Positions 6,177 through 62,644 of a stretch of DNA of 64,000 bases are shown in pieces; within the stretch, counting starts at the first letter, position 1, and each line of letters opens with the position of its first letter. The translations under genes were made by a program, and so were the position numbers. The notes under the pieces are model-generated. The model was not told the origin of the DNA. It did not search any database and saw only the letters and a program-made list of their open reading frames with translations. Source of the stretch: Malacoraja senta (Eukaryota). The stretch is from positions 6,760,001-6,824,000 of the forward strand of contig CM075995.1 of assembly GCA_038087875.1 (NCBI GenBank). Direction: 5' to 3'.

Positions 6177-6612
6177 TGCTGGAAGGAACTGCAGATGCTG
6201 GTTTACACCGAAGATGAGACACGTGTTGCTGGAGTAACTCCGCGGGACAGGCAGCGTCTCTGGAGAGAGAAGGAATGGGCGACGTTTCGGGCCGAGACCC
6301 TTCTTCAGACTGAGCGTCAGGGGAGAGGGAGACACAGAGATAAGGAAGGGTAAGGTGTGAAAACGAGAGATCAAAAGAGATGGGGTTCGAGGAAAATGTA
6401 GAATAGACCATTGTTAGCTTGGGGAAGATGACAACAAATCAAACAGAGATCCAATGTAGTCGGAGACAGTCAGACTGGGGTGGGGGAGGGATGGAGAGAG
6501 AGGGAAAGCAAGAGTTACTTGAAGTTAGAGAAGTCAATGTTCATACCGCTGGAGTGTAAGCTGCCCAAGCGAAATATGAGGTGCTGTTCCTCCAATTTGC
6601 ACTGGGCCTCAC
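6177..6612 (-). mobile_element. Penelope-like element 3' fragment (GIY-YIG C-terminus + 3' region with hammerhead motif)
   Basis: 6610-6515 (-) translates EAQCKLEEQHLIFRLGSLHSSGMNIDFSNFK*, a typical PLE endonuclease end. Hammerhead-like core at 6308-6281. 10-bp TSD AAACAGGTTG at 6167-6176 and 6613-6622. Confidence 0.85.
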
Positions 6613-6625
6613 AAACAGGTTGCAT

Positions 6626-7683
6626 GATGGGACTTTTGCGGGCTGGATGAGTCCGTGTGTCATGTATGTACGGAGTGCGTGAGGTTGCAGCCCCTGTTCC
6701 AATATCTACAGGGGCTGCTCCTCGCCTTCTGGCTGCACTTCACACCCACCACCCTCATCTTTGGACAACCTGCGCGTAGGGGAGAGGGTAGATCTGAAGA
6801 CGTCCTGGTTGGGTTGCTCCTAGGGTTTCCAACTTTCTCACACTCCCAATTAAGGGACAAAAAGTCAAAATACGGAACAAATTCCCGACGGCAATTCGTT
6901 AACCGACTCGGCCGTGGCTGGGTGAATGATGAGTTGGCCCGGGTGCTGGACTGCACACAAAGCCCAGCCGGTGGGGCCAGCTGAGGAGTTTTGGCCCGGG
7001 CCGCGTGACGTCGCGCCCAAAGTCCGGCACCCCGTCCAACTCATGAACCGATGATCGTCCATGAGAAGGAGGGGTGGTGGTGGTGTCGGCGGTAAGCGAA
7101 GGTCCGAAAGTCGGACAGCTGGCTGGGCTGCCGACCGACGGGGCCACGGGCGAGGAGGCGCTGCTGCTGCTGCTGCACTCCATGGGCTTCACCACGTCGG
7201 GACGGGTGAGGCGGGGCCGGACACGGCGCTCCGACCCGGCAGTCCCCTCGACCCGAGTAGTAGCAGTCAAATACCGGACAAAGGCGGTCCCGTATGGGAC
7301 AAACCAATTTAGCCCAATATACGGGATGTCCCGGCTAATACGGGACAGTTGGCTTACAACCCTAGTTGCTCCTGGGCCTGGCCAAGCTGACCCTCCGCGA
7401 GTCATGACGCCCGGCAGAAGAGGGCTGTGCCCGCGCCGGCTGTTGTGTCCGTGCCCGGGTCATTTTAGAGAGGGACCACGCGCTGGCCACGGGTGCCCTG
7501 GGGGATTTCCGGGACGGCTGGGCACCGCGGGGAGGTGGAATGAATCCTCAATAATGATGGGGGAATGGTAATTTAATATTCAATATTTAAGAATATTTTG
7601 TATTAGGGTGGTGGGTGGTTTGTATTTTTGCACTGCATGTATCATTTTGGTAAATAGTTGATTAAAACCATTTTTGACAAAAT
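6626..7683 (+). mobile_element. Tx1/L1-clade LINE 3' fragment (zf-RVT region), split by a hAT MITE
   Basis: Peptide CGLDESVCHVCTECVRLQPLFQYLQGLLLAFWLHFTPTTLIFG...LVGLLL|GLAKL. 12-bp TSD AACAGGTTGCAT at 6614-6625 and 7684-7695. Confidence 0.8.
6821..7364. mobile_element. Non-autonomous hAT element (MITE)
   Basis: TIRs TAGGGTTTCCAAC / GTTGGCTTACAACCCTA. Perfect 8-bp TSD GTTGCTCC (6813-6820, 7365-7372). Subterminal GGGACA repeats. Confidence 0.9.
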
Positions 7684-7989
7684 AACAGGTTGCATTGGAC
7701 TCCTTGGTGAAGCACCACCTTCTTGAACCACAGTCTCACCCAACCTCCCAACGCAAACCCCCCCCCCCCGCTGTTCGGTGACTCAGTTCGTGATCCAGAT
7801 CAGCCTCAGCTCAGCGGTGGCAGCCTTACCTCTGAGTCAGAAGGCTATGGTTTCACACCCACTTGTGGAGAGTGAGTTCTGACTGTGGTGAGAGAATCCC
7901 ATCTGCACCGTCTTGTGGAAGGAAATATCCTAAGGTTCTACTTAATGAACAGACCACAGCGCAGTGCAGGAAGGAACTGCCGATGCTGG

Positions 7990-8556
7990 TTTGTCGGTAT
8001 GTCAAGGAGGACTCTCTCTAACTTCTACAGGTGCACAGTAGAGAGCATGCTGACCGGTTGCATCGTGGCTTGGTTCGGCAACTTGAGCGCCCAGGAGCGG
8101 AAAAGACTACAAAAAGTAGTAAACACTGCCCAGTCCATCATCGGCTCTGACCTCCCTTCCCTCGAGGGGATCTATCGCAGTCGCTGCCTCAAAAAGGTTG
8201 GCAGCATCATCAAGGACCCACACCATCCTGGCCACACACTCATCTCCCTGCTACCTTCAGGTAGAAGGTACAGGAGCCTGAAGACTGCATCGTCCAAGTT
8301 CAGAAATAGCTACTTCCCCACAGCCATCAGGCTATTAAACTCCTGAGACGAATCTCTGAACATTAATAGACCATTATCTGTTTATTTGCACTTTATCTGC
8401 TTATTTATTGATGTGTGTATATATTTATATAATGGTACATGGACACACTGATCTGTTCTGTATTCATGCCTACTATGTTCTGTTGTGCTGAAGCAAAGCA
8501 AGAATCTCATTGTCCTATCTGGGACACATGACAATAAACTCTCTTGACTTGACTTG
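7990..8556 (+). mobile_element. Rex1/Babar LINE 3' fragment
   Basis: Peptide [21 protein letters not shown]...[22 protein letters not shown]. Tail is TGACAATAAA + (CTTGA)n. Confidence 0.9.
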
Positions 8557-8731
8557 ACGAAATGCTGGAGTAACTCAGCGGGACGGGCAGCATCTCTGGA
8601 GAGAAGCAATGGGTGACATTTCGGCTCGAGACTTTTCTTCAAGCTTCAGACTTCTGAAGGAGGGTCTCGACCCGAAACGTCACCCATTCCTTCTCTCCAG
8701 AAATGCTGCCTGTCCCGCTGTGCTACTCCAG
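8557..8731. mobile_element. Palindromic (inverted-pair) Penelope-derived element
   Basis: Two inverted arms of the PLE terminal sequence. Hammerhead-like core variant at 8654-8681. Confidence 0.8.
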
Positions 8732-8739
8732 TATATACA

Positions 8740-9030
8740 ACAGTACAGCATAGGAACAGACCCTTCAGCCCAACTTGCCCACACCGACCAACATCTCCCA
8801 CCCATACCAGCCCCACCTGCCTGTGTTTGGCCCATAGCCCTGTCTAAATGTTTCTTACACGTTGCGATGGTACCTGCTTCAACTACCTCCTCTGTCAGTT
8901 CCTTCCATACACCCACCACCCTTTGTGTAAGGAAGTTACCCCTCGGGTTCCTATAAATCTTTCCAATCTCACCGTAAAACGATGTCCTCTGGTTCTCGAT
9001 TCCTCTACTCTTGACAAGATTCTGGGCATT
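8740..9030 (-). mobile_element. CR1 (HER1-type) 3' fragment
   Basis: Peptide RNPRGNFLTQRVVGVWKEL. The tail is shared with the SINE (GGGCTGAAGGGTCTGTT). Confidence 0.82.
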
Positions 9031-9042
9031 TGCCCAATTCAT

Positions 9043-9353: not shown

Positions 9354-9449
9354 TAATCTTTGACATTTGCACCCTGGGAGAAAGGTTCTGACTGTCTATC
9401 CCATCTATGCCTCTCAGAATGTTATATACTTCAAACGGATCTCCCTTCA

Positions 9450-9860: not shown

Positions 9861-9887
9861 AGCTCCGACGTTCTGGCGAAACTGGCC

Positions 9888-12169: not shown

Positions 12170-13186
12170 GCAGAATTAGGCCAATTGCACCATCAAGTCT
12201 ACTCCGCCATTCAATCATGGCTGATCTGTCTCTCCCTCCTAACCCCATTCTCCTGCCTTCTCCCCATAACCCCTGACACCCGCACTAATCAAGAATCTAT
12301 CTCACTCTGCCTTAAATATATCCACTGACCTGGCCTCCACGCAAAGAATTCCGCAGATATGGGTGACGTTTCGGGTCGAGACCCTTCTTCAGACTGAGAG
12401 TCCGGGGGGAGGGAGACACGGAGATATGGAAGGGTAAGGTGTGAAAACGGGACATCAAAGGGGACGAGGCTCAATGAAAATGTGTCTACCTTCGGTTTAA
12501 ACCAGCATCTGCAGTTCCTTGGAGAGAACGAATGGTCATAAGGTCATAGGTGATAGGAGCAGAATTAGGCCATTCGGCCCATCAAGTCCACTCCGCCATT
12601 CAATCATGGCTGATCTATCTTTCTCTCTTGAAGACCCGAAACATCAGCCATTCCTTCTCAATAGACAATAGACAACAGACAATAGGTGCAGGAGTAGGCC
12701 ATTTGGCCCTTCGAGCCAGCACCGCCATTCAATGTGATCACGGTTGATCATCCCCAATCAGTACCCCTAGAGATGCTGCCTGTCCCGCTGAGTTACTCCA
12801 GCATTTTGTGTCTATCTGCAGTTCCTTCCGACAGGTCTATTTGCAAAGCTCTGTCTCAGTGTCAGAGCATGCGTGGGGTGAGAGAGAGTCTTGGATTCAC
12901 TTCTCCGCAGTCCCACAACTGAATATCCCACCTCCCGTCTGCTGAGCAGTTGCATCTATAATTAGTGCCTCGGCCAGATGGTCCCGCGGTGCCTAAGAAC
13001 TCGGTGTGAGGGGAGATGGGGGACATTGCCATGAGTCTTAACACCTTGTATACTGCACGCCCGCACAAAGTCTCACTCCACCGCCAGCCCTCCGTGCCGC
13101 ACAGCTCACCCTCTCCGTGACACGCTGGTCAACCTGAGGAGCACCTTCAGCAACAGACTAGTTCCACCAAGATGCAGTACAGTCCA

Positions 13187-14407: not shown

Positions 14408-14880
14408 GCACAAAAAGCTGGAGTAACTCAGCGGGACAGGCTGCATCTCTGGAGAGAAGGAATGGGTGACGTTTCGAGTCGAGACCCTTCTTCAGACTGA
14501 GAGTCAGGGGAAAGAGAAATGAGAGAGAGAGATATAGACGGTGATGTCGAGAGATATGGAACAAATGAATGAAGGATAGACAATAGACAACAGGTGCAGG
14601 AGCAGGCCATTCGGCCCTTCGAGCCAGCACCGCCATTCAATGTGATCATAGCTAATCATCCACAATCAGTACCCCGTTCCTGCAAAAATAGTTACGATGA
14701 TAAACAGGCTGTGGGCTAGGTGAAAACGAGTTTCAGACAATGAGACTCAACAAGACGACTTTGAAGCTGGTACGACTTGGGTGGGAGAGTGATGGAGAGA
14801 GTGGGGGATGCAAGGGCTGCTTGAAGTTAGAGAAACCTATTCTCACACTGCTGAGCTGTAAGCTGCCCAAGCGAAATATG
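14408..14880 (-). mobile_element. Penelope-like 3' fragment interrupted by a CR1 tail (~14577-14682)
   Basis: Hammerhead-like core at 14468-14495. 14820-14880 encodes the degenerate HIFRLGSL...N terminus. Confidence 0.75.
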
Positions 14881-17055: not shown

Positions 17056-17221
17056 CTATTTTTCATATGCTGCTTTACACTGCAGATAGACACAAAATGC
17101 TGGAGTAACTCACCGGGACGGGCAGCATCCCTGGAGGGAAGGAATGGGTAACGTTTCGGGGTCTAGACCCTTCTTCAGACAGAATCCGAAGAAGGGTCTC
17201 GACCTGAATCGTCACCCTTTC

Positions 17222-17612
17222 CTAGAAGGATGAGAGGGGATCTTATTGAAACATATAAGATTATTAAGGGTTTGGACACGCTAGAGGCAGGAAACATGTT
17301 CCCGATTGTTGGGGGGGAGTCCAGAACCAGGGGCCACAGTTTAAGAATAAGGGGCAAGCCATTTAGAACGGAGAAGAGGAAACACTTTTTCTCACAGAGA
17401 GTGGTGAGTCTGTGGAATTCTCTGCCTCAGAGGCCGCTTCTCTGGATACTTTCAAGAGAGAGCTAGATAGGGCTCTTAAAGATATCAGGGGATATGGGGT
17501 GAAGGCAGGAACGGGGTATTGATTGTGGATGATCAGCCATGATCACATTGAATGGCGGTGCTGCCTTGAAGGGCTGTATGGCATACTCCTGCACCTATTG
17601 TCTATTGTCTAT
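17222..17612 (+). mobile_element. CR1 3' fragment, (CTATTGT)n tail
   Basis: Peptide MRGDLIETYKIIKGLD...HFFSQRVVSLWNSLP. Confidence 0.9.
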
Positions 17613-20735: not shown

Positions 20736-21140
20736 AAAAAGCCCCAAAGTCCTTAGTGCAACCAAGACGGTTCTTAGTTCTTAATTTAGTTGGTGTTTGT
20801 AGTGTTCAAGAGGTCGATGGCGGCTGGGTAGGAGCTGAAGAAGGGCCTCGACCCGAAACGTCACCCATTCCTTCTCTTCAGACGTGCTGCCTGTCCCGCT
20901 GAGTTACTCCAGCATTTTATGTCTACCTTCGAGTTTAAAAACCCCCCAGCATCTGCAGTTCTTTCCTACAGAGCTTATTTAGTTTAGTTAAGAGATACAA
21001 CGTTGAATCAGGCCCTTCGGCCCACCAAGTCCGCGCCGACCAGCGACCCCTGCCCACTACCACTATCCCACACACACCAGGGACAATTTACAATTATACC
21101 AAGCCAATTAACCTACGTCTTTCGAGTGTGGGAGGAAACT

Positions 21141-21777: not shown

Positions 21778-22816
21778 GTTATTATATATTTTTATATGTT
21801 TTTGAATCAAAATCAAGAATTATAAATTCACATTTTAAAAATGGTTTCACAATTCAGTAGTACTGATTTTCAGTATTCCTTAATGATATTTGATATATTT
21901 CATGATATAATGAGGTTGCATGCAAAATACTGATTTTCAAAAATCCAGTTTCTGTGTAGTACATTCTATTGCATTTACGTGAGAAATACCGATTTCCCCA
22001 AGGAAATACGATTTTCAGCCATCAAAATATGGAAATGCTCGGTGAAACTTGGCTGCTCTGCAATTATTCACAATCACATTGTGTTTGAGAATTCAAAATG
22101 TGATTTGTGATCTTGTTTATGAGTCAACATGGAACTAGAATTTGTTATAATGGTATGACAGTAAAATAGGTCAGTTTGAAAGCGATCATAGTACGATAAT
22201 GTAAATGCACTATTTAGTTTGACTTCAATTTTCATGATGGAAATTGAAGTCGAACTAAATGTTGTATTCACATCACTGTTCCATGTTGAAATAGATGTGA
22301 TGGGAAGTTGTTAGGTCATGAGGACCATTAAAGGTGTACTGCACACACTAACACAGTCTAACAGTAACAGGCAATCTAATCAACACACGAAACATTTTCT
22401 AAAAAAAGGTTTTCTTTACTGCAAAAACGTACAGTATTTTATTTGCAGTTCTTGCATGCTCCTTTATAACATTTTACATAACATTTTACAACAGTACAAC
22501 TTGATTATTAAAACAAGGACAACTTCAATTCTTGATTAAAAAAAATGTATACAACAATGATCCCATTCCACCCACTCATTACTCTTGACTCAACCAAAGT
22601 TATTTCTGAAATATTGGTCATAACTTTGGTGTTAAAATGCTCCAAAATAAGGCTCAGACTGCACCCGAGAGGATCTAAAACCCCAGAGCGGGCCCTGGAT
22701 CCCGACCGCGAGGGACTTCGCGCTCGTGATGTGTGCTGCGCGCACATTATTTCACATAACATTTTTGTAATCCTGTCATGCCACCCCCCTTTTTTGAAAA
22801 GCTTCGTACGGGCCTG
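21778..22816. mobile_element. AT-rich island ending in a candidate DNA-transposon TIR
   Basis: SINE/LINE-free AT-rich kilobase with a GC-rich subterminal part, ending CGTACGGGCCTG (rc CAGGCCCGTACG, hAT-like). No partner TIR. Confidence 0.35.
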
Positions 22817-25785: not shown

Positions 25786-25816
25786 TAAAAAAATAGGTGG
25801 ACACAAAAAGCTGGAG

Positions 25817-27305
25817 CCTGTGCTGCGCAGCTGACAGACGTCTGGACTGACATCTTCAACCTGTCACTTGCCCAAGCAGTTGTGCCCACGTGCCTTAAAT
25901 CCACCTCCATCGTGCCGGTGCCAAAACACTCCACTGCGGCGAGCCTCAACGACTTCCGCCCAGTTGCACTTACTCCCATCATCGCCAAGTGCTTCGAGAG
26001 GCTGGTCCTGGCACACCTCAAAGGCTGCCTACCCCCCACACTGGACCCCTATCAGTTTGCCTACCGCAAGAACAGGAGTACGGAGGATGCCATCTCAACG
26101 GCACTTCACTCCGCCCTCTCCCACCTCGATAACAGAGACACTTACGTAAGAATGCTGTTCATCGATTACAGCTCAGCATTCAACACCATCATACCCTCTA
26201 AACTGATCACCAAACTCGGTGACCTGGGCATCGACCCCTCCCTCTGCAACTGGATACTGGACTTTCTAACCAACAGACCCCAGTCTGTTAGGTTAGACAA
26301 GCACACCTCTTCAACCCTCACCCTGAACACCGGCGTTCCACAGGGCTGTGTGCTGAGCCTCCTCCTCTACTCCCTCTTCACCTGTACACCTGAACACCGG
26401 TACTAACACCATCATCAATTATGCAGATGATACAACGGTGATTGGCCTCAACAGCAACAACGATGAGTCGGCCTATAGGGAGGAGGTCCAGCTCCTAGCA
26501 GCATGGTGCGCTGACAACAACCTGGCCCTTAACTCCAAGAAGACCAAGGAGCTCATTGTAGACTTCAGGAAGTCTAGGGGCGGCACGCACACCCCCATCC
26601 ATATTAACGGGACGGAGGTGGAACGTGTTTCCAGCTTCAGGTTTCTGGGGTCAACATCTCTGATGACCTCTCTTGGACCCACAATACCTCAACTCTGGTC
26701 AAGAAGGCTCACCAGCATCTCTTCTTCCTGAGGAGACTAAAGAAGGTCCATCTGTCTCCTCAGATTCTGGTGAACTTCTACCGCTGCACCATCGAGAGCA
26801 TCCTTACCGACTGTATCACAGTATGGTACGGCAACTGCTCTGTCTCCGACCGGAAATGAACTGCAGAGGGTGGTGTAAACTGCCCAACGCATCACCGGTT
26901 CCTCACTCCCCACCATTGAGTCTGTCCAAAGCAAGCGATGTCTGCGAAGGGCGCTCAGCATCGCCAAGGACAGCTCTCACCCCAACCACAGACTGTTTAC
27001 CCTCCTACCATCCGGGAGGCGCTACAGGTCTCTCCGTTGCCGGACCAGCAGGTCCAGGAACAGCTTCTTCCCTGCGGCTGTTACACTACTGAACACTGTA
27101 CCTCGGTGACTGCCAATCACCCCCCCCTCCCCCCGGACACTCCTCCCACCAGGAACAAATACTATGACTGTATGCAAGTAAATAGATTTATTTACTGCTC
27201 ATATTTATGTCGCTCTTCAAGGGAGATGCTAACTGCATTTCGTTGCCTCTGTACTGTACACTGCACAATGACAATAAAGTTGAATCTGGATCTGGAATCT
27301 GGATC
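25817..27305 (+). pseudogene. Rex1/Babar LINE, 5'-truncated, disrupted reverse transcriptase
   Basis: Motifs [27 protein letters not shown] and NYADD (~26418-26432). Frameshifts and stops downstream. Ends TGACAATAAA + (GAATCT)-like tail. Confidence 0.93.
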
Positions 27306-28454
27306 TAACTCAGTCTGAAGAAAGGTCTTGACCCAAAACGTCACCTATTCCTTTTCTCCAGAGATGCTGCCTGACCCGCTGAGTTACTCCAGCTTTTTGT
27401 GTCTATCTTCGGTTGAAACATAAAAGCTCCTTCCAACATAAAAATAGGCTCATTTATTTAACCCTAAATAAACAGGGCCTCTGTACGTTAAGGATCATGT
27501 TTAACATTGTTTAGTAACCAAACAGGTCCTTTGTCTCCTATTCTGGAGCTTGGTGATTAATTGTCAGGTTAGAATGTGCCTCAGGTTTTTAAAATTTCTG
27601 TTTCCAAATCACTCCTTGTTCTCTTCCTCACTATCTCCGTATTCTGCTCCGCCCCAAAACAACCCACTGAGATAAGTAGGAAGGAACTGCAGATGCTGGT
27701 TTACACCGAAGATAGCCACGTAACTCAGCGGGACAGACGGCATCTCTGGAGAGGAGGAATGGCTCACGTTTCGGGTCGAGACCCACCTGAAGAGACGTCA
27801 CCCATTCCTTCTATCCAGAGATGCTGCCTGACCCATTGAGTTGCAATAGGCAATAGGTGCAGGAGTAGGCCATTGGGCCCTTCGAGCCAACACTGCCACT
27901 CAATGTGATCATGGCTGAATCAGTACCCCGTTCCTGCCATCTCCCCATACCCCCTGACACCAGCATTTTGTGTCTATCTTCGGTATGAATATTGATTTCT
28001 CTAACTACAAGTAACCCTTGTTTTCCCTCTCTCTTCATCCCTCCCCCATCCTAGTTCTCCGACTAGTTTCACTGTCCTCCTGATTAATTTTACTGCTTGT
28101 ATCCCTCCTTGTCACCTTCCCCTCAGCCAACGATGAACCATTTTACATTTCCTTGCGTGAGGGAAGGAAACTGCGGACGCTGGTAGCTCACGGACAGTTC
28201 TGACCTCTTGGTGGTTCTGTTTAGTGTAGAGATACAGCATGATAACAGGCCCTTCGGCCCACCGAGTCCATTCCGAACAGCGATCCCCGCACACTGGCAC
28301 TATCCCACACACTCAGAAGAATTTTACAACTTCACCAAAGCCAATTAACCTATAAACCTGAAAAAGCCAAATTACTTTTTGACCACCCTAACCACTTGTG
28401 ACACGACTTTCAAGGAACTATGTACTGGCGCTGCTAGAGTCCTCTGCTCGACAA

Positions 28455-30517: not shown

Positions 30518-31229
30518 TAAAATCTCGATGTATCTCGGTACAAGTGACAACAATGAATGATGACCAAGCAGTCATCTCTCTGGAGAGAAGGAATAGGTGA
30601 CGTTTCGGGTCGAGACCCTTCTTCAGACTGAGAGTCATGGGAGAGGGAAATGCGAGATGTAGACGGGGATGTAGAGCGATGCAGAACAAATGTATGATTC
30701 ACTAACTTCAAATAACCCTGGTATCCCCTCTCTCTCCCTCCCTCCACCAGCCAAGGCGTTGTACTAGCTTCAAAGTGGTCCTGTTGAGTTTCATTGTCCT
30801 TAACTCGTTTTCACCTAGTCCACAGTTAACAATGGCCTGTTTCGTTTGTCATCGTGACTTTTTTGCACATCTTTCATTCAGTTCTTCTAAACGTTATTCC
30901 CTTACACTGTAAATGGCTTGATTGTAATTATGCATTGTCCTTCCGCTGACTGGTTAGCACGCAACAAAACCTTTTCACTACGTTCATGTTTTTTGCAATG
31001 GATCTGTCTATATTGAATAAGCAATGTTAAAATGTTTTGCTGCCCATTTACAAAAAGAACGTCCCTCCTTACACTGCCTGATTATTTTTGGTCAAACATC
31101 TCAATATTTATGTCTCTCGTGAAAATGCCTTGCTAATGGACTATAATTAGAGGGTTTGTTTCATAAATAAATAATAATTTCCTCCCAAGCTTTTAGGACT
31201 GCCTCTGGTCAATACATCTACTTAATGTT

Positions 31230-31435
31230 CTTGACACAAAATGCTGGAGTACCTCATCGGGACAGGCAGCATCTCTGGATGAACAAGGGTCTCAGACTGG
31301 AGAAGGGTCTCGACCCGTAGCGTCACCCATTCCTTCTCTCCAGAGATGGTGCCTGTTCCGCTGAGTTAGTTCAGCATTTTGTGTCTATCGTAGCTGATCG
31401 TGTAAATCAGCATCTGCAGTTCCTTCCCCAACATT
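31230..31435. mobile_element. Palindromic Penelope-derived element
   Basis: Inverted arms. 9-bp TSD CTTAATGTT (31221-31229, 31436-31444). Confidence 0.8.
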
Positions 31436-40628: not shown

Positions 40629-40844
40629 TTTAAGAAGGAACTGCAAAAGCTAGAAAAATCGAAAGTAGATAAAAGTACTGGAGAAACTCAGCGGGTGGGG
40701 CAGCATCTATGGAGCGAAGGAATAGGTGACGTTTCGGGTCGAGACTTCAGTCTGAAGAAGGGTCTCGACCCGAAACGTCACCTATTCCTTCGCTCTATAG
40801 ATGCTGCCTCACCCGCTGAGTTTCTCCAGCATTTTTATCTACAG
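40629..40844. mobile_element. Palindromic Penelope-derived element nested in another PLE
   Basis: 14-bp TSD GGGAATGTAGAATG (40615-40628, 40845-40858). Confidence 0.85.
40752..40779 (+). ncRNA. Minimal type I hammerhead ribozyme-like core (representative copy)
   Basis: CUGAAGA-A-GGGU(CUCG)ACCC-GAAA-CGUC. Identical 28-mers at 41186, 41478, 43419 and 50747 (+) and at 12365 and 30599 (-). Activity unknown. Confidence 0.6.
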
Positions 40845-41869
40845 GGGAATGTAGAATGGTTTATTGTGAGCTGAGGGGAAGGTGACAACGAGGTGTACAA
40901 TCAGTAATATTTAATCAGCAGATCAGTAGAACTAGTCAGAGAACTAGGATGGGGAGGGACGGAGAGAGAGAGGGAATGCAAGGGTTACTTGAAGTTAAAG
41001 AAGTCAATGTTCATACCGCTGGGGTGTAAGCTGCCCAAGCGAAATATGAGGTGCTGTTGCTCCAATTTGCGCTGGGCCTCACTCTAAGGTTTTCTCAGTG
41101 CTTTGCCTGTGCTTTTCACACCTTTCATTCGTTTGTTCTTTGTACCTTTTCATACCAGCCGTTTCCCTCTCCCCTGACTCTCAGTCTGAAGAAGGGTCTC
41201 GACCCGAAACGTCGCCCATTCCTTCTCTCCAGAGACGCTGCTGCCTGTCCCGCTGAGTTACTCCAGCGTTTTGTGTCTATCTTTGGCACAATGACTGTCC
41301 CTCTTGCACTGTGTGGAGCCTGCACAAATTAATCTTCACTGCTGACTCAGCGTTAAAGGGCGCTCTTTTAGAAAGGAGGCGAGGAGGAACTTCTTTAGTC
41401 GGAGGGTTGTTAATCTGTGGAACTCATTGCCACAGAGGGCTGTGGAGGAGGCCACGTCAGTGGATATTTTGAATACCCTGAAGAAGGGTCTCGACCCGAA
41501 ACGTCACCCATTCCTTCTCTCCAGAGATGCTGCTGCCTGTCCCGCTGAGTTACTCCAGCTGTTTGTGTCTATCTTCGGATATTTTTAAGGCAGGGATGGA
41601 CAAGTTCTTGAGTAGAATGGGTGTCAAGGGTTATGTGGGAGAAATCAGGACAATGGGATTAGGAGGCAGAGATCAGCCATGATTGAATGGTGGAGTAGAT
41701 TCGATGGGCCGAATGGCCTAATTCTACTTCTATAACTTGTGAACCTTTGACTTTGCACACTTTATCTTGTAATGACTTATCCAGAGGCACATGTTCACTA
41801 CTCTGTTTGAAATCTGACAACTTCTAAATATAATGTACTGGCAGCATAGAGGTTGCCGGAGGCCCTCAC

Positions 41870-42214
41870 AGGGCCTGTCCCACTAGGCGATTTTTTAGGC
41901 GACTGCCAGTGACTGTCGTAGTCGTAGCAGGTCGCCGAAAAAACAGCGACTGGACTAATGGGCCTGTCCCACTTAGCTGATTTTTTAGGCGACTACGACA
42001 GCACCTACGTCAGGAGAAGACAGGCTACGACAAGCCCACGGTCGACGACTGTCGCCGAAAAGTTTGAACATTTCAAAATCCAGCGGCGACCAGAAAAACG
42101 CCACGACTCTTTGAGCGACTGAGGAGACTACTCACGACCATACAGGCGACACCCCGGGCTACCGTGTGGCAAAAGCCAAGTCGCCTAAAAAATCGCCTAA
42201 GTGGGACATGCCCT
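41870..42214. mobile_element. MITE with two left TIRs and one right TIR
   Basis: AGGGCCTGTCCCACT at 41870, TGGGCCTGTCCCACTT at 41959, and AAGTGGGACATGCCCT ending at 42214. Confidence 0.75.
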
Positions 42215-44231
42215 GTAGGAATCTGAGACATCTAAGCAAGAATGTGCTGGTTGTGGCGAGGGTCCAGAGGAGGTTTGCAGGAATGATCCCAGCAATGAGT
42301 GGGTTAACATATGACGAGCGTTTGACGGCACTGGGCCTGTATTTGCTGGAATTTAGAAGGATGAGGGGGGGGCCTCATTGAAACGTATTGAATAGTGAAA
42401 GGCTTAGTGAATGTGGAGAGGATGTTTCCACTGGTGGGAGAGTCCAGGACTAGAGGACATGGCCTGAGAATTAAAAGACGTTCTTTTAGGAAGGAGATGA
42501 GGAGGAATTTCTGTACGGAGTTTGGACGTTCTCCCCTGCGTGGGCTTTCTCCGGTTTTCTCTCACACTCCAAAGACGTGCAGGTTTGTCATTTAATTGGC
42601 TTGGTAAAATAGACAATAGACAATAGACAATAGGTGCAGGAGTAGGCCATTCAGCCCTTCGAGCCAGTACCGCCATTCAATGTGATCATGGCTGATCATC
42701 CCCAATCAGTACCACATTCCTGCCTTATCCCCATATCCCCTGACTCCGCTATCTTTAATAAAAATTGTAAACCTCTACGTGGCATCTCTTTGTATACCGC
42801 TGTACCTAGTATTTCGCTGTAGCTAGTATCCATCATTAAGTGGTCGCTGCCACACAGCTTCACAGCTACCTCACAACGCCAGAGACCCAGGTTCGATCCT
42901 GACCACGGGTGCTGTCTGTACGGAGTTTGTAAGTTCCCTGCGTAACCTGCGTGGGTTTTCTCTGGGTGCTCCGGTTTCCTCCCAAACTCCACCTTAAAAA
43001 TATCATTGACGGCAATGAATACCTCAGATTCACCACCCTCTGGCCAAAGAAATTTCTCCTCATCTCCTTCCTAAAGAAAAGTCCTTTAATTCTGAGGCTG
43101 CGCCCTCTGGTCCTAGACTCTCTCACTCGTGGAACCATCCTCTCCACATCCACTCTACCCAGGCCTTTAACTATTCTTTAAGTTACAATCAGGTCCCCCC
43201 TCATCCTTGTAAACTATCAGCTATGTTTGAATGGCGGAGTAGACCTGATAGGCCGAATGGCCTCATTCCGCTCCTACTACTTATGAACTTATAAATCCAT
43301 CTAAATAGTTGCATGGACCGGAAAGGTATCACTCATGAGTGATGGCTAGAGGAAAAAAGAGACCATTTATTCTTGCAGTCTCTCAGCTCTCAGATGCTGT
43401 TGGCCTGAAATTGCCAGTCTGAAGAAGGGTCTCGACCCGAAACGTCACCCATTCCTTCTCTCCAGAGATGCTGCCTGTCCCGCTGAGTTACTCCAGCATT
43501 TTGCGTCTATGGTTTAAACCAACATCTGCAGTTCCTTCCTGCACACTGCTTGCCTAAATCTGTTTGGGATTAGCCGGATTCAATAAGATGATGTGTCATT
43601 TCAACCAGCTCTTTTCATCCGCTGACAGGTTTATTTGTCTGTGGTCAGGGCTATAAGAGTCAGGACATTCTAACCCAGCTTCAAAAACCATGCACTAACA
43701 CGGCCAGCCTGACAGCTCCTTGGAGACTGTGCAGCACCACATCCCTTCTTTCAATGCATTTAGTTTTGTTGAAAGTTTTCTCTGCCTCAGAGGGCGGTGG
43801 AGGCCAGTTCTCTGGATGCTTTCAAGAGAGAGCTAGATAGGGCTCTTAAAGATAGCGGAGTCAGGGGATATGGGGAGAAGGCAGGAACGGGGTACTGATT
43901 GGGGATGATCAGCCATGATCACATTGAATGGCGGTGCTGGCTCGAAGGGCCGAATGGCCTACACCTGCACCTATTGTCTATTGTCTAAAGATTCAGCGCA
44001 GAAACAGGCCCATTGGCCGGCCGGGTCCTCACCGTCCAGCGATCACGCATACGCATTATCCAGCACACACAATTACAATTATACCAAGCCCAATAACCTA
44101 CAAACCCCAACGTACAAACTCCGTACAGACAGCGCCCATAGTCAGGATTGAACCCGGGTCTACGGCGCTGTGAGGCAGCAACTCTACTGCGGCGCCGCCG
44201 TGCCGAGCTTCTGTAAAGCTCTCAGCTACTT

Positions 44232-45789: not shown

Positions 45790-46687
45790 TATTTATTTAT
45801 TTTTTCATTTCAAAATAGACTTTATCCAGCAGCGGAAGGACCCTAGACTGTGGCCCTCCCCCACCGTGCCTTGGCGTTGGCTGCACCGAGCTTCAGTGCG
45901 TCCCTCAGCACGTACTCCTGCAGTCTGCAGCGGGCCAGTCGGCAACATTCCCCGACGGACATCCCGCTCCGCTGGGAGGTCAACAAAGCTCGGGCAGACC
46001 AAAGAGCGTCTTTCACCGAGTTGACGACCTTCCAGCAGCACTCGATGTCCGTCTCTGAATGCGTCCCTGGGAACAGTCCGTAAATCACAGAGTCCTCTGT
46101 GACGGAGTTGTTCGGAATAAGCCGGGACAGGGACCCTTGCAAACCTCTCCAGACTGTCTTTGCAAATCCACACTCTGCAAAGAGGTGGGCAACTGTCTCC
46201 TCTCCATAGCAGCCGACCCGAGGGCAGCGTGCGCTGGTTGTGAGGTTCCGACGGTGCAGGAAGGATCTGACTGGGAGGGCTCCCCTCACCGCCAGCCAAG
46301 CCAGGTCTTGGTGCTTGTTGGTGAGTTCTGGCGATGAGGCATTTTGCCAGACAAGCTGGGCAGTCTGCTCCGGGAACCACACCACAGGATCCATCGAGTC
46401 CTTTCCCTGCAGTGCCTGCAGGACGTTCCGTGTTGACCGGTGCCCGATGGACTTGTGGTCAAAGGCGTTGGTCCGGAAGAACCTTTCCACGAGCGACAGA
46501 TGGGGCGGCAATGTCCAGCTGACTGGCACATTGCGTGGCATCTGCGCCAGGCCCATCCTTCGCAACACCGGGGACAGGTAGAACCTCAGCAGGTAGTGAC
46601 ACTTGGTGCCCACGTGCCTTGGCTCTACACTCCGCCTGATGCAGCCACACACAAAGGTGGCCTTCAGGGTGAGGGCGACATTGGGCA
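45790..46687 (-). pseudogene. Tx1-clade LINE ORF2 3' fragment (zf-RVT), inserted in a Rex1 tail
   Basis: About 280 open codons including CPRVGCYGEETVAHLFAEC. 3' end is ATAAAG...(TAAA)n. The Rex1 tail lies at ~45640-45789 and 46688-46805. Confidence 0.85.
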
Positions 46688-47156
46688 GTGCAAGATAGAG
46701 GCAGTAAAGTCCGATCAAGGAGAGTCCGAGGGTCTCCAATGAGGTTGACAGTAGTTCAGGTCAGCTCTCTAGTTGTGGTGGGATGGTTCAGTTGCCTGAT
46801 AACAGATATTCTGTATACCTCTCATGATTTTGATCTCACAATTCAGCTCCCTTTCCGCATAGTTAATTACTTTGCTCTTTAAATCCTACTCTGGGCCTGT
46901 TTCGGTCTTGAGCCTACAGTTTCTTTCATTGTTAACCTGTTCTGCATTAGAACTTCCCCAGTGGTTCAATTGTCAGGAAATGCTGGCAGACCTTCAAGGA
47001 AACTTTCTCCCCTCCACCCCCCTCCCCCTCCGCTCCTGTATTTCACTGTGAGCCTCTCTTCAGTTTGGAAACCGGGAAAAAAAACCAACATTTGGCGGAG
47101 TTCTCGGTCACCTTGCTTTCACACCGTCCTAACCTATTCCAATTGCTTCAAATCGG

Positions 47157-50552: not shown

Positions 50553-50926
50553 TCACACTCTAAGCTCCAAAAACGTATAGGTTGGTGGGTTAATTGGCTT
50601 TGGTAAAACATTGTAGATTTGCTGTGAAGTTGGACACAAAATGCTGGAGTAACTCAGTGGGACAGGCAGCATCTGTGGAGAGACCCTTCTTCAGACTGAG
50701 AGTCAGGGGAGAGGGAGACACAGAGATATGGAATCTAGATATATGTCTGAAGAAGGGTCTCGACCCGAAACGTCACCCATTCCTTCTCTCTAGAAATGCT
50801 GCCTGTCCCGCTGAGGTACTCCAGAATTTGGTGTCTATCTTTGGTTTAAACCAGCATCTGCAATTCCTTCCTACACAGATATATGGAAGGGTAAGGTGTG
50901 AAAACGACAGATCAAAGCAGATGGTG

Positions 50927-51126
50927 NNNNNNNNNNNNNNNNNNNNNNNNNNNNNNNNNNNNNNNNNNNNNNNNNNNNNNNNNNNNNNNNNNNNNNNNNN
51001 NNNNNNNNNNNNNNNNNNNNNNNNNNNNNNNNNNNNNNNNNNNNNNNNNNNNNNNNNNNNNNNNNNNNNNNNNNNNNNNNNNNNNNNNNNNNNNNNNNNN
51101 NNNNNNNNNNNNNNNNNNNNNNNNNN
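50927..51126. other. Assembly gap (200 N)
   Basis: Run of N. A PLE on the left and a CR1 on the right are both cut by it. Confidence 1.
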
Positions 51127-51485
51127 AAGGCCAGGATAGAGTGGATGTGGAGAGGATGTTTCCACTGGTGGGAGAGTCTAGGACTAGAGGTCACAGCCTC
51201 AGAATTAAAGGACGTTCCTTTAGGAAGGAGATGAGGAGGAATTTCTTTAGTCAGAGGGTGGTGAATCTGTGGAATTCATTGGCACAGAAGGCTGTGGAGG
51301 CCAAGTCAGTGGATATTTTTAAGGCAGAGATAGATAGATTCTTGATTAGCATGGGTGTCAGGTGTTATGAGTCGAAGGCAGGAGAATGGGGTTAGGAGGG
51401 AGAGATAGATCAGCCGTGATTGAATGGCGGAGTAGACTTGAAGGGCGGAATGGCCTAATTCTGCTCCTATCACTTATGACCTTGT
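51127..51485 (+). mobile_element. CR1 3' fragment
   Basis: Peptide DRVDVERMFPLVGESRTRGHSLRIKG...WNSL. Confidence 0.9.
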
Positions 51486-52449
51486 GATCTAACTCATTAT
51501 TCCGTGTTCATTCTGACCAGCGCACTTGGGACATCCTTGTGGCACCACCTGGAGGCCAGCCATGGAATTTGCAGACACATTCAGCCTTTCTAATCCGTCA
51601 ACAATTCCAAACATCCGCTTTTGACGGAGCATCTGGGGAAGAAACATAGAAAACATAGAAAATAGGTGCAGGAGTAGCCAAAGGGATCCGAATAAGCCAT
51701 TTAGAACGGGGATGAGGAAAAACCTTTTCTCACAGAGAGTTGTGAGCCTGTGGAATTCTCTGCCTCAGAAGGCTGTGGAGGCAGGTTCGCTGGATGCTTT
51801 CAAGAGAGAGTTAGATAGAGCTCTTAAAGATAGCGGAGTCAGGGGATATGGGGAAAAGGCAGGAACGGGGTACTGATTGTGAATGATCAGCCATGATCAC
51901 ATTGAATGGCGGTGCTGGCTCGAAGGGCCGAATGGCCTACTCCTGCACCTATTGTCTATTGTTGTGTAGGAAGGAACTGCAGATGCTGGTATAAAGCAAA
52001 GATCGACACAAATGCTGGAGTAACTCAGCGGATCAGGCAGCATCTCTGGAGAGAAGGAATGGGTGACGTTTTGGGTTGAGACCCTCAGTCTCCAGTATTT
52101 TGTGTCTATCTTCGGACATTATTGTGTTGTCAAATATCAGAGGGTGGCACGGTGGTACAGCGGTAGAGTTGCTGCCTTTACGGCGCCAGAGACCCCGGTT
52201 CAATTCTGACTACGGGTGCAGTCTTTACGGAGTTTGTACGTTCTCCCCGTGACCCGCATTGGTTTCCTCCAGTTTCATCCCACACTCCAAAGACCTACAG
52301 GTTTGATGTAAATGTAAATTGTCTCTAACATGTGTAGTTTGCTGCTGGTGTACGGGGATCGCTGGTCGGCCCGAACTCGGTGGGGGAAGGGCCTGTTCCC
52401 GCACTGTATCTCTGAACTAAACTAAATTACAATTTACAATTTACAGAGT

Positions 52450-53005: not shown

Positions 53006-53012
53006 CGTTCGG

Positions 53013-54831: not shown

Positions 54832-56090
54832 AGCAGGGGCCAACTCGGCGGCACCCCCTGTTGGCCGCGGCTCACCGGGCCCTATGTGCAGGGGCCAGCT
54901 CGGTGGCTCCCCCTGTTGGCCGTGGCTCACCGGGCCCTATGTGCAGGGGCCAGCTCGGCGGCTCCCCTGTTGGCCGCGGCTCACCGGGCCCTATGTGCAG
55001 GGGCCAGCTCGGTGGCTCCCCCTGTTGGCCGCGGCTCACCGGGCCCTATGTGCAGGGGCCAGCTCGGTGGCTCCCCCTGTTGGCCGTGGCTCACCGGGCC
55101 CTATGTGCAGGGGCCAGCTCGGCGGCTCCCCTGTTGGCTGCGGCTCACCGGGCCCTATGTGCAGGGGCCAGCTCGGTGGCTCCCCCTGTTGGCCGCGGCT
55201 CACCGGGCCCTATGTGCAGGGGCCAGCTCGGCGGCACACCCTGCAGGCCGCGGCTCACCGGGCCCTATGTGCAGGGGCCAGCTCGGTGGCTCCCCCTGTT
55301 GGCCGTGGCTCACCGGGCCCTATGTGCAGGGGCCAGCTCGGCGGCTACCCCTGCAGGCCGCGGCTCACCGGGCCCTATGTGCAGGGGCCAGCTCGGCGGC
55401 ACCCCCTGTTGGCCGCGGCTCACCGGGCCCTATGTGCAGGGGCCAGCTCGGTGGCTCCCCTGTTGGCCGCGGCTCACCGGGCCCTATGTGCAGGGGCCAG
55501 CTCGGTGGCTCCCCTGTTGGCCGCGGCTCACCGGGCCCTATGTGCAGGGGCCAGCTCGGTGGCTCCCCTGTTGGCCGCGGCTCACCGGGCCCTATGTGCA
55601 GGGGCCAGCTCGGTGGCTCCCCTGTTGGCCGCGGCTCACCGGGCCCTATGTGCAGGGGCCAGCTCGGTGGCTCCCCCTGTTGGCCGCGGCTCACAGGGCC
55701 CTATGTGCAGGGGCCAGCTCGGCGGCATTCCCTGCAGGCCGCGGCTCACCAGGCCCTATGTGCAGGGGCCAGCTCGGTGGCTCCCCCTGTTGGCAGGGGC
55801 CAGCTCGGTGGCTCCCCTGTTGGCAGGGGCCAGCTCGGTGGCTCCCCCTGTTGGCAGGGGCCAGCTCGGTGGCTCCCCCTGTTGGCAGGGGCCAGCTCGG
55901 TGGCTCCCCCTGTTGGCAGGGGCCAGCTCGGTGACTCCCCCTGTTGGCAGGGGCAGCTCGGTGGCTCCCCCTGTTGGCCGCGGCTCACCGGGCCCTATGT
56001 GCAGGGGTCGGCTCGGCGGCTCCCCCTGCAGGCCACGGCTCGCCAGGCCCTATGTGCAGGTGCCAGCTCGGTGGCTCCCCCTGCAGGCTG
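54832..56090. repeat. GC-rich minisatellite (54-55 bp unit with a block of 30-31 bp deletion units)
   Basis: Unit GGCCGCGGCTCACCGGGCCCTATGTGCAGGGGCCAGCTCGGTGGCTCCCC(C)TGTT. About 17 full units, then 6 short units, then 2 full units. Confidence 0.97.
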
Positions 56091-58438: not shown

Positions 58439-59953
58439 TTAATGATCAGAGTTTTGTTTGAGTAATAGCCTGATGGCTGTGGGGAAGATGCTATTCCTGA
58501 ACCTGGATGTTGCAGATTTCAGGCTCCTGTACCTTCTACCTGAAGGTAGCGGGGAGATGAGTGTGTGGCCAGGGTGGTGTGGGTCCTTGATGATGCTGCC
58601 AGCCTTTTTGAGGCACCGACTGCGATGGATCCCCTCGATGGAAGGGAGGTCAGAGCCGATGATGGACTGGGCAGTGTTGACAACCTTTTTCAGCCTTTTC
58701 CGCTCCTGGGCGCTCAAGTTGCCGAACCAAGCCACGATGCAACCGGTCAGCATGCTCTCTACTGTGCACCTGTAGATGTTCGAGAGAGCCCTCCACGACA
58801 TACCGACTCTCCGTAATCTTCTCAGGAAGTAGAGGCACTGATGTGCTTTATTTATAATTGCATCAGTGTTCTCGGACCAGGAAAGATCTTCAGAGATGTG
58901 CACGCCCAGGAATTTGAAGCTCTTGACCCTCTCCACCATCGACCCGTTGATATAAATGGGACTGTGGGTCCCCATCCTACGCCTTCCAAAGTCCACAATC
59001 AGTTCCTTGGTTTTGCTGGTGTTGAGAGCCAGGTTATTGTGCTGGCACCGTTTGGTCAGTCGGTCGATCTCTCTTCCATACTCTGACTCGTCTCCATCAG
59101 TGATACGTCCCACAACAGTGGTGTCGTCGGCGAACTTGATGATGGAGTTCGCACTATGACCGGCTACACAGTCATGAGTATAGAGTGAGTGCAGCAGGGG
59201 GCTGAGCACGCAGCCTTGAGGTGCTCCCGTGCTGATTGTTATCGACGTTGACACATTTCCACCAATATGAACAGACTGTGGTCTGTGAATGAGGAATGCG
59301 AGGATCCAATTACCCAGTTCTGAGAGTTTGGTCACCAGCTTGGAGGGGTTGATTGTGTTAAATGCCGAGCTGTAGTCAATGAATAACAGCCTGACATATG
59401 AGCTTTTGTTGTCCAAGCAGTCCAGAGCGGAGTGGAGAGCCAGCGAGATCGCATCCACCGTTGATCTGTTGTGGCGGTAAGCGAACTGCAGTGGGTCCAG
59501 GTTTTTGTTGAGGTAGGAGTTGATTTGAGCCATGATCAACCTCTCAAAGCACTTCATCACCACCGACGTTAGTGCCACAGGTCGATAGTCATTGAGGCAC
59601 GTCACCTTGCTCTTCTTGGGCACTGGTATAATTGATGCCCTTTTAAAGCAGGTGGGAACCTCAGACCTCAGAAGTGAGAGGTTGAAAATGTCCGTAAAAA
59701 CTCCAGCCAGTTGGTCCGCACAGGTTTTTAGAACACGACTGGGTATGCCATCAGGACCAGGCGCTTTCCGTGGGTTCACTCCTCTGAAGGATTTCCTGAC
59801 GTCGACCTCTGTGACCGTGACTGATATACCATCACAGCGAATGGAGGCTCGAGAAGGCACATCAGTGTTCTCCCTATCAAAGCGTGCGTAAAACGCATTG
59901 AGCTCGTCAGGGAGTGATGTTTCGCTGACATTCGAGCTACCTCCTGATTGCAT
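58439..59953 (-). pseudogene. Rex1/Babar reverse transcriptase reading frame (504 aa open, not a full-length ORF)
   Basis: Motifs [43 protein letters not shown] and FKFLG. Frameshifted upstream, no endonuclease domain, and a 6-codon in-frame deletion relative to the 25817 copy. Confidence 0.92.
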
Positions 59954-60305: not shown

Positions 60306-60308
<3 letters not shown>

Positions 60309-60365
<57 letters not shown>

Positions 60366-60408
60366 TGTGTGAGTGTGTGTGTGTGTGTGTGAGTGTGAGT
60401 GTGTGTGT

Positions 60409-60461
<53 letters not shown>

Positions 60462-60466
60462 TGTGT

Positions 60467-60510
<44 letters not shown>
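60309..60510. repeat. (TG)n/(TGAG) microsatellite within a Rex1 tail
   Basis: Read directly. Confidence 0.98.
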
Positions 60511-60513
<3 letters not shown>

Positions 60514-61483
60514 ATTTAATTTTGTTCTCGTTTATTATATTTACAGTATACTATGTTTACAGATTCTGTTGTGTTGCAGCAAGTAAGAATGTCATTGTTC
60601 TATCTGGGACACATGACAATAAAACACTCTTGTCTCTTGAATTGCTGCTGTCGGAGTGGAGCGATTGCAGATCCATGTCTGTGAACAGCACACACAGAGG
60701 GAGCATAAGTTCATGTGATAGGAGCAGAATTAGACCATTCGGCCCATCAATTCTTCGCTGCCATTCCATCATGGCTGATCTATCTCTCCCTCCTAATCCC
60801 CATTCTCCTGCCTTCTTCCCATAACCCCTGGCACCTCCACTGCCCTCTGTGGCAGAGAATTCCATAAATTCACAACTCACTGGGTGAAAAAGTTTTTTCT
60901 CACCTCAGTCTTAAATGACCCCCCCCTTTATTCTAAGACTGTGGCCCCTGGTTCCGGACTTGCCCAACATTGGGAACATTTTTCCTGCATCTAGCTTCTT
61001 GTAGTCCTCGGTATATTCAGACATGAATGCCCGGTGTCTGGACTTCAGAAGAGTGCGGATCTCATAGTTCATCCAAGGCTTCTGATTGGGAAACACTTGG
61101 AAGGTTTTTGTTGGGCTGCATAATTGACTGGCAGAGGTGACTTGATGGGCTGAATGGCCTAATTCTGATGCTATCACTTATGAAGTTATGAACATGAACC
61201 ACCTGTATCTGTCTGAAGAACGGTCTCGACCTGAGATGTCACCTAATCATTTTCCCCAGAGATGCTGCCTAACCCGCTGAGTTACTCCAGCATTTTGTGT
61301 CCATCTCCCACACAAATGTCTTGTTGCTTCCAGATCCCTTCTTTTCCAAAGCACTAAGCTGCCTTGTGGAAATCTTGGGAATGTTTCCCTTGTAGTGAAC
61401 TTACTGGTCAAGTGCCAGAGGACATAGAGCTGGTTTCCCTTCAGCGTAAACCCTTTCCTATGTTCAGATCAAAGCATCAAGAA

Positions 61484-62010
61484 CGGCACGGTGGCGCAGC
61501 GGTAGAGTTGCTGCCTCACAGCGCCAGAGACCCGGGTTCCATCCCGACTACGGGTGCTGCCTGTACAGAGTTTGCACGTTCTCCCCGTGACCTGCGTGGG
61601 TTTTTCTCCGAGATCTTCGATTCCCTCCCGCACTCCAAAGACGTACAGGTTTGCAGGATAATTGGCTTCGGTAGCAATGTGAAAATTGACCCTAGTGTGT
61701 GTAGGGTAGTGTTAATGTGCGGGGATCGCTGGTCGGTGCGGACTCGGTGGGCTGAAGGGCCTGTTTCCGCGCTGTATCTCTAAAACTTAAAAAAAAACTA
61801 ACACTATCCTACACACACTAGGGACAATTTACATTTTACACCAAGCCAATTAACCTACAAACCTGTACGTCTTTGGAGTGTGGGAGGAAACCGGAGATCC
61901 CGGAGAAAACCCACGCAGGTACAAACTCCGTACAGACAGCACCTGTGGTTAGGATCGAACCCGGGTCTCTGGCGCTGTGAGGCAGCAACTCTACCGCTGC
62001 GCCAGCGTGT
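61484..62010. mobile_element. Tail-to-tail pair of HE1-like SINEs (61484-61785 +, ~61800-62010 -)
   Basis: Two heads face inward and are nearly abutting. Confidence 0.9.
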
Positions 62011-62644
62011 CTGACTTCTGATAAATTCATTAATCAACAGCTGAGAAATATTTAGCTTTGGCATATTGTTAGTTCCATGGACACAGTTGAAGTTAGTTGC
62101 TTTATTTTACTTATGGCATTTTTTGCTTTATGTTAATGATGACATTTAGTTTATACAGGACTCAGAAGAGTTTAAATGGCAATGCCAATCCAGTTCCTGG
62201 AATGGCTGCCAACATCTATTTGAGTAAATGCAAAGTAAATACAGTATTTACTCAGTGGTTAAGGACAGGGTGGACCACAGAAACGGCTTGGTAGGCTGAA
62301 TTCTCAAAAATACCAATCAGCAATCTTTAACATGCCAATTTTAATAAGTGGATTGCATGTTTCAGCGCAGGGAGCCTCTAATGTACAAGGAAGCATCTGC
62401 ACCGAAGTTGGTTTACACCGGATATGGGCACAAAATGCTGGATTAATGCAGCAGATCAGGAAGCATCTCTGGAGAAAAGGAATAGGTGACGTTTCGGGTC
62501 GAGATCCTTCTTCAGACTGATGCAGATACGGGACGCAGGTGGTTACGGGGAGAAGGCAGGAGAATGGGGTGAGATAGATCAGCCACGATTGAATGGTGGA
62601 GTAGACATGATGGGCCGAATGGCCTAATTCTGCTCCTATCACTT

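Follow-up and report, generated by a model that had tools for sequence, protein, structure and literature searches.

Minimal type I hammerhead ribozymes in the pseudo long terminal repeats (pseudo-LTRs) of metazoan Penelope-like elements (PLEs) have already been published (Cervera and De la Pena 2014, PMC4209133), including a D. virilis variant whose helix I has only 2 base pairs (bp), and the function of hammerheads in PLEs has been called unclear (PMC8557442). The Neptune and Nematis clades carry a CX2-5CxxC linker between reverse transcriptase (RT) and endonuclease that is absent in Penelope and Poseidon (PMC8557442). For other PLEs an initiator-like motif (PMC3846280, PMC8557442) and an internal promoter have been reported. 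Do PLE hammerheads cut in vivo, and how do inverted and tandem PLE insertions arise? We analysed a 64,000-nucleotide stretch of the Malacoraja senta genome (C19:6,760,001-6,824,000; genome 1.94 Gb), referred to as the window, in which an earlier note had described dispersed Penelope-derived copies with a minimal hammerhead core.

We put at roughly 80% the probability that these copies are 5'-truncated, decaying insertions of a Neptune/Nematis-type PLE, made by RT from two fixed sites with a stop near the RNA 5' end. The balance tips slightly towards a further proposal: that the active PLE, in spite of a 2-bp stem I, cuts in vivo, that this is recorded as the roughly 1% of young insertions beginning at the cut, and that the ribozyme-free 3' product was circularised or re-copied into arrays. 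Throughout, +1 is the first C of the core, the predicted cut lies between +28 and +29, and bases 5' of the core are negative.

The parent element and its hammerhead motif

The exact 28-base core is present at all seven places reported for it (40752, 41186, 41478, 43419 and 50747 on the plus strand, 12365 and 30599 on the minus strand), as are all 12 listed variants. These have one mismatch (6281, 8654, 14468, 20835, 62488), two (4803), three (17186, 27315, 31297) or four (61213), or small insertions (at about 17147 and 39985); further degenerate cores beyond that list lie at 8615, 27765, 37365 and 40506. The window holds 21 sites with six or fewer mismatches and 100 shuffles reach at most one, so that chance is excluded as their source. 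Genome-wide, the exact 28-mer occurs 18,728 times and its reversed pattern not at all. The high copy number claimed earlier was thus real, and the density had been understated: 53 pieces in 30 clusters make up 7.8% of the window. Near-intact cores number 25 per 100 kb in the window; the corresponding density is 12.5 for the flanks (80 kb) and 7.8 for large chromosomes (399 kb), which extrapolates to roughly 150,000 genome-wide. Only 10 of the 37 tail-anchored window copies keep an intact core and stem II, eight of them with a 2-bp stem I; the other 27 lack an intact core. Read from the sequence, the motif parses as proposed, into CUGANGA, an extra A, a 4-bp stem II, GAAA, a loopless ACGU and GUC. 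Catalytic core, NUH triplet, stem II and palindromic helix III amount to the anatomy of a minimal type I hammerhead, a predicted ribozyme.

The Penelope origin was borne out by a parent open reading frame (ORF) with RT, CX4CxxC linker and C-terminal GIY-YIG domain. Two window peptides, 6518-6640 and 40988-41083 (both minus strand), match the C-terminal end of the ORF in locus L022 with 67% and 68% identity (E 3e-12 and 1e-13, single comparison). That the stop codon of such a C-terminus lies upstream of the core holds for 6518-6640, which leads to the near-intact core at 6281; the minus-strand peptide 40988-41083 precedes the damaged core at 40506-40533 and not, as had been suggested, the plus-strand cores at 40752 and 41186.

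The 28-mer of the window represents older subfamilies, whose long copies differ by about 4.5% from the majority in the ORF and are often broken; no intact master of the older GUC subfamilies was found. A sister family is very young: all 150 matches listed are 99-100% identical across about 158 amino acids, and open frames reach 1318 codons. Two of its loci have an ORF flanked by two terminal repeats, each with the motif: L081, a partial tandem of period 3996 (ORF of 1250 codons; 1238 amino acids), and L085, a repeat-ORF-repeat copy (1261 codons). The young core departs from the older 28-mer at 3 of 28 bases (a change in loop II, U-A to U-G in stem II, and GUU for GUC), and this variant accounts for 19,101 exact cores and 33,309 exact tails genome-wide.

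The L081 ORF matches RVT_1 (E 7e-6) and GIY-YIG (E 0.0015), both below gathering score, and the 442 homologues of the parent ORF are unnamed or uncharacterised proteins with RT/GIY-YIG domains. The parent has a DKG motif and a CCHH finger with two cysteines inside the GIY-YIG motif, the mark of endonuclease-bearing (EN+) PLEs (PMC8557442), as well as CX4CxxC between RT and endonuclease. By this linker motif it is classed as a Neptune/Nematis-type EN+ PLE, its homologues carrying no clade names. The EN+ layout is also present, with pseudo-LTRs from partial tandems, an inverted 5' copy, a one-sided tail and target duplication. Another trait of EN+ PLEs is a retained spliceosomal intron; here acceptor-like sequence lies 5' of the core and donor-like sequence 3' of the tail, and no spliced copy was noticed.

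Some peculiarities of the young family were recorded in passing. Residues about 160-510 of the L081 and L085 ORFs form a long, proline-rich, repetitive insert between an N-terminal motif and RT, which varies among young copies and brings the ORF to 1240 amino acids, compared with 700-950 in most homologues. At L084:1621-7000 a young element sits in frame inside the ORF of a long interspersed nuclear element (LINE), giving the 1318-codon fused frame, and the tail ATG opens the remaining LINE frame. In G000:C1:3.87-4.03 Mb the young tail recurs at about 2.44-kb spacing, probably within a larger satellite.

Copy ends, probable traces of cutting and rival explanations

With the tail as anchor, the ends of 96 young copies were determined (30 loci and 40 regions among the first 100 tail places listed, plus 88 unselected regions and the window; 19 listed places that belong to a cluster of 2.4-kb period were omitted, as were the last 6). 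Their 3' ends fall 63-68 bases past the cut in 51 of 96 and 96-105 bases past it in 29 of 96. Their 5' ends are ragged and crowd between -8 and +22: 25 lie at -9 to -1, 31 at +1 to +22, three at -49 to -10, and 26 are 50 or more bases upstream. An inverted partner accompanies 34 of the 96, and 25 of 44 short solo copies have a target duplication of seven or more bases. Among 100 head-to-head pairs taken from 942 kb of unselected DNA, 65 combine a short with a long end, 15 are short and short, five long and long, and 15 unclassified (P 3e-7); the junctions lie at -5 to -1 and at +7 to +14, with a concentration at the latter. An untemplated G precedes 17 of 27 ends at -4 to -2, as against 15 of 83 other ends (P 4e-5). 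Copies that include the ORF start often begin at -3 to -5, and several copies consist of two RNA copies joined end to end, some via oligo-A, the second beginning at -3 or -4. At L273, L279, L287, L334, L414 and L417, a second copy is joined to a short leader-plus-ORF piece that stops near +270-285 or +859, in some cases with oligo-A; these are apparent end-to-end template jumps onto transcripts that had ended prematurely.

A TCAGT motif can be read as an initiator, and an extra G as the trace of a copied cap. Applied to these ends, the capped RNA would begin at -4 to -2, in a TCAGT motif, and such a start would leave only two bases free for stem I. RT would use either of two fixed start sites, one about 65 and the other about 101 bases beyond the cut, and stop at or near the RNA 5' end; with both sites in the 5' leader, copying would yield the solo copies of 95-135 bases. 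Both cut DNA strands may prime, one per start site, the cDNAs joining at self-complementary parts of the motif to give palindromes, and RT, on reaching an RNA 5' end, may jump to another 3' end. The ribozyme would mostly be folded off and cut a small share of the RNAs, probably helped by an element protein or by a second RNA. Since nearly all copies span the cut site, cutting would not be required for insertion, by analogy with the anole system. The window copies themselves are passengers.

Is there a trace of cutting at +29? To count young copies by starting position we used genome-wide patterns of three non-matching bases followed by exact young tail. Starts at +28, +29, +30 and +32 number 67, 169, 43 and 45, or about 38, 334, 133 and 108 after correction for chance; a flat rate expects about 82 at +29, where 169 were observed, and the class amounts to about 1% of copies. 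Arrays point the same way. Among the first 100 of 406 leader-to-ORF matches there are 56 independent sites, six of which are arrays of three or more units. Two of the six start at the cut and lack the core, one with 11 units of 138 bp (+29 to +166), the other with four of 165 bp (+28/29 to +193). The identical joins within each are as expected from a circle or from later amplification, and the two arrays differ from each other in their 3' joins. L411, picked by the +29 pattern, has five successive 61-62-bp units, each starting at +29, with variable linkers. The remaining four arrays begin at -35, -36, -58 and -129 and retain the core; judged by their units, they are newborn arrays of the retrozyme type. 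Joins near -35 to -39 occur in three independent cases (L271, L274, L412; also L325). The +29 peak and the three coreless arrays likely record, as fossils, that about 1% of templates were cleaved in vivo. No report of genomic copies starting at a PLE hammerhead cut was found in the open-access literature, supplements aside; this motif may be listed in the supplements of PMC4209133 or in those of Li et al., who sampled one cartilaginous fish.

Could so small a motif act as a ribozyme? Of 60 intact copies, 47 have a contiguous stem I of 2 bp and one has 3 bp, short of the 4-5 bp of a usual helix I; the caveat already attached to these copies, that they may be inactive, probably holds for most of them. 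A longer stem I across an internal loop was rejected as weak, the outer pairs being just 56-64% paired, as was one created by splicing, the short copies sharing no constant upstream exon. Stem II is paired in 92.5% (50 distinct rows from one genome, chosen for near-intact cores). Rfam gave no hammerhead family over the window at gathering score, nor over 40600-43700 at E up to 10; its miRNA matches are merely the palindrome. Predicted monomers fold as non-hammerheads with the core buried and stem I and II pair probabilities of about 0, and a forced dimer lies about 20 kcal/mol above the best cofold (one helix I omitted). In 27 old copies, chosen by ORF only, catalytic bases have decayed at 11 of 261 positions (4.2%) and the ORF at 611 of 13547 (4.5%); a comparison with the tail (3.3% vs 5.9%, P 0.09) likewise led us to reject extra core conservation among copies. 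The earlier note had taken such a lack to speak against a ribozyme; the lack is there, yet dead insertions are expected to show the same. Constraint on the core appears to be visible only between master lineages, where young and old keep 25 of 28 core bases, 122 of 184 third codon positions and 54 of 95 bases of the untranslated region. All three core changes are tolerated by the fold, and the catalytic bases are unchanged.

A number of observations weigh against cutting or against the proposed RNA start. None of the 96 unselected young copies begins at +29, and cleavage as the main origin of 5' ends was rejected on this count. About 10 of 40 inspected +29 loci proved to be internal deletions or microhomology joins, in an inspection that had no like among the controls. 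The older GUC subfamily shows no peak: 0 of 30 inspected loci start at +29, and a hand count of 100 listed places gave 11 at +29 and 11, 6, 12 and 7 nearby, with 53 set aside as indels or duplications. Nor was the extra G seen in old subfamilies, where the base before GT is A in 39 of 48 and G in 4 of 48; the set in which it was found is enriched for leader-to-ORF loci. Stem I/II covariation, put forward earlier as a check, came down to the one-sided U-A to U-G change, and 426 of 500 shuffles reach the observed two-sided count. The tail, with 52 of 61 bases kept between masters, is as conserved as the core. RNA start site, cap and cleavage are all read from DNA ends only.

How, then, could the ends have arisen without any ribozyme? 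If the motif never cuts in vivo, they would come from RT stalling or from cDNA annealing at palindromes, and the +29 class from a stall at helix III (+23 to +28) or from microhomology. A stall at the helix III duplex, ending at +28, is a fair rival, and the non-hammerhead monomer folds, the costly dimer, the concentration of inverted junctions at +7 to +14, the missing peak in the old subfamily and the anole element, for which no transcript ends were found at the cut (PMC11167929), all agree with it. Against it stand the two of six unselected multi-unit arrays that start at +29 or +28/29 with different 3' joins, the five successive +29 starts with variable linkers at L411, the fall of the estimated rate from 334 at +29 to 38 at +28, and the catalytic bases identical between masters. 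We regard a complete absence of cutting as unlikely, while giving it real weight, and lean towards occasional cleavage.

Much less probable, in our judgement, is that the short copies are an independent non-autonomous retrozyme or short interspersed element (SINE) spreading through ribozyme-made circular RNA. Most copies are indeed non-coding and 95-135 bases long, and the four core-bearing young arrays (254, 260, 275 and 384 bp) fit the tandem definition of Li et al. 2026, which asks for at least two head-to-tail units that each hold a complete hammerhead; on the other side, short copies are 94-100% identical to the autonomous master, 5' ends are ragged, with 26 of 96 reaching 50 or more bases upstream and long copies continuing into the ORF, units span the cut site rather than starting there, leader-to-ORF junctions number 406 to 33,309 tails, and the window has no head-to-tail hammerhead array. 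The separate retrozyme-like family of the earlier note finds no support: there is no window array, long copies enter the PLE ORF, and the subfamilies match autonomous masters. Judged by sequence, the window motif belongs to an EN+ PLE with a minimal hammerhead and is not a retrozyme by the tandem definition; a further mark of non-LTR retrozymes would be abundant circular monomer RNA. Least probable of all, to the point that we give it hardly any credence, is an action of dispersed copies on host transcripts, as cutters of pre-mRNA or as co-opted regulators. The raised core density (25 vs 7.8 per 100 kb) would suit it, as would the long double-stranded RNA that palindromic copies would form if transcribed; however, no exon or strand bias was found in the window, catalytic bases decay neutrally, and 27 of 37 copies lack an intact core. 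Of 152 candidate frames of the window, 121 were compared with Pfam and none matched, the rest being low-complexity or known repeats; no exon or host gene was found, and the tail-anchored copies are 20 minus and 17 plus. The idea of an intron with many cleavage sites in host pre-mRNA is unsupported, given no exon, balanced strands, monomers that do not fold as hammerheads, and many copies palindromic or coreless. Insertion of a truncated PLE, with likely occasional cutting, is the account that we prefer.

Layout of the window and of the arrays

At least 79% of the window is repeat. The copies and the genomic arrays are collected in the table; one window end first scored at +29, in the extra-G set, proved to be a diverged core and not a true end. 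Among other features, a GC-rich 55-bp minisatellite of 22.5 copies, with a 31-bp variant block and long open frames, occupies 54833-56083, and LINE reverse transcriptase remnants lie at 58439-59953 (minus), 25789-26406 (plus) and 45843-46760 (minus), with a 504-amino-acid RVT_1 frame and a zf-RVT frame. A 1-kb AT-rich stretch (21789-22816) has no match among the other fetched loci and no Pfam match. An assembly gap (200 N, about 50925-51130) adjoins the inverted cluster at 50627-50903.

Table. Hammerhead-bearing copies in the window (window coordinates) and young arrays elsewhere in the genome
Position or locus	Strand	Feature
4742-4836	-	Solo short copy, from 6 bases 5' of core to short 3' end
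6177-6640	-	Longest copy: GIY-YIG C-terminus 6518-6640, stop 6515-6517, pyrimidine-rich 3' untranslated region, core 6281-6308, tail
8557-8731	both	Head-to-head pair, cores 8615 (-) and 8654 (+)
12359-12479	-	Exact core 12365-12392; tail ends 6 bases past predicted cut
14409-14541	-	Copy with 1-mismatch core 14468-14495
17064-17223	both	Head-to-head pair, junction just 5' of cores
20835-20970	+	Copy beginning at first core base, without 5' arm of stem I
27309-27409	+	Solo short copy, 3-mismatch core
27676-27842	both	Head-to-head pair, truncated inside cores
30577-30667	-	Exact core 30599-30626, shortened tail
31233-31427	both	Head-to-head pair, core 31297 (+)
31878-32072	both	Head-to-head pair, junction in stem II, one short and one long 3' end
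33467-33665	both	Head-to-head pair closest to young family; short and long end; 12-bp target duplication
39921-40057	-	Copy with 2-base insertion in core, about 39985-40017
40476-41083	-	Older arm: GIY-YIG C-terminus 40988-41083, damaged core 40506-40533, split by palindromic insertion
40627-40842	both	Palindromic insertion: exact core 40752-40779 (+), long and short ends, 14-bp target duplication, one long hairpin (predicted fold)
41161-41288	+	Arm with exact core 41186-41213
41478-41575	+	Exact core from first core base (41478), without 5' arm of stem I
43415-43545	+	Typical solo copy: starts 4 bases 5' of exact core 43419-43446; long 3' end
50627-50903	both	Head-to-head cluster, exact core 50747-50774 (+)
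51963-52085	-	Copy truncated within core, long 3' end
61208-61306	+	Solo short copy, 4-mismatch core
62388-62522	-	Solo copy, 1-mismatch core 62488-62515, long 3' end
L245-L255 (G000:C1:27,817,3xx), L275 (C1:381,271,2xx), L411 (C9:35,222,3xx)		Arrays starting at first base past cut, without core; units 138, 165, 61-62 bp
L256-L268, L271, L272, L274		Arrays with whole core per unit; 384, 254, 275, 260 bp; 98-99.7% identical to active master

Relation to known systems

The window copies themselves are ordinary, being debris of a published motif type; the interest lies in the young family. What is added here is the pile-up of 5' ends 2-4 bases before the core with an extra G, and the peak and arrays that start at the cut. 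If our reading is correct, cleavage by a PLE hammerhead in vivo would be attested at the level of DNA, and the entire PLE cycle could be read out, the same family recording a capped start, template jumps from end to end, priming at both ends and newly born retrozyme arrays. In a vertebrate genome that holds intact masters and more than 33,000 near-identical young copies, the predictions are exact to the base: an RNA start at -4 to -2, a cut after +28, copying starts 65 and 101 bases on, and circle junctions.

Like the minimal hammerheads described before (PMC4209133), the motif has the catalytic core, an unpaired base 5' of stem II, a G-C first pair and a palindromic loopless helix III, and it occurs mostly in solo truncated copies and opposite-strand pairs, with weak activity expected. 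Unlike the schistosome motif, with stem II of 7-8 bp and stem I of 4-5 bp, it has stems of 4 and 2 bp, and its two variants total over 37,000 exact cores, compared with 4,000-9,000 quoted for coelacanth and Xenopus (PMC4209133). As in EN+ PLE insertions (Arkhipova et al. 2013, PMC3846280; Craig et al. 2021, PMC8557442), we find a head-to-head inverted repeat, a one-end tail of 30-40 bases, duplications, partial tandems and an initiator-like motif in the repeat. Those accounts favour antisense self-priming or endonuclease resolution, whereas the 65 of 85 short-plus-long pairs seen here would fit priming from two ends.

Animal non-LTR retrozymes (Cervera and de la Pena 2020, PMC7229834; Li et al. 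2026, 10.64898/2026.07.22.740005) share the origin from PLE terminal repeats, and the young arrays fit their tandem definition; unlike retrozymes, the window copies are solo or inverted, their hammerhead is minimal and not canonical, and the arrays starting at the cut are coreless. In PAc, the Poseidon element of Anolis carolinensis (Frangieh et al. 2024, PMC11167929), two internal start sites likewise set the tail and both DNA strands are extended, and the hammerhead is dispensable for insertion and protein-assisted, to which we liken the present case. It differs from PAc in that the ORF starts downstream of the tail and in its CX4CxxC linker, absent from Poseidon; and while no RNA ends at the cut were found for PAc, here genomic copies start at that very position.

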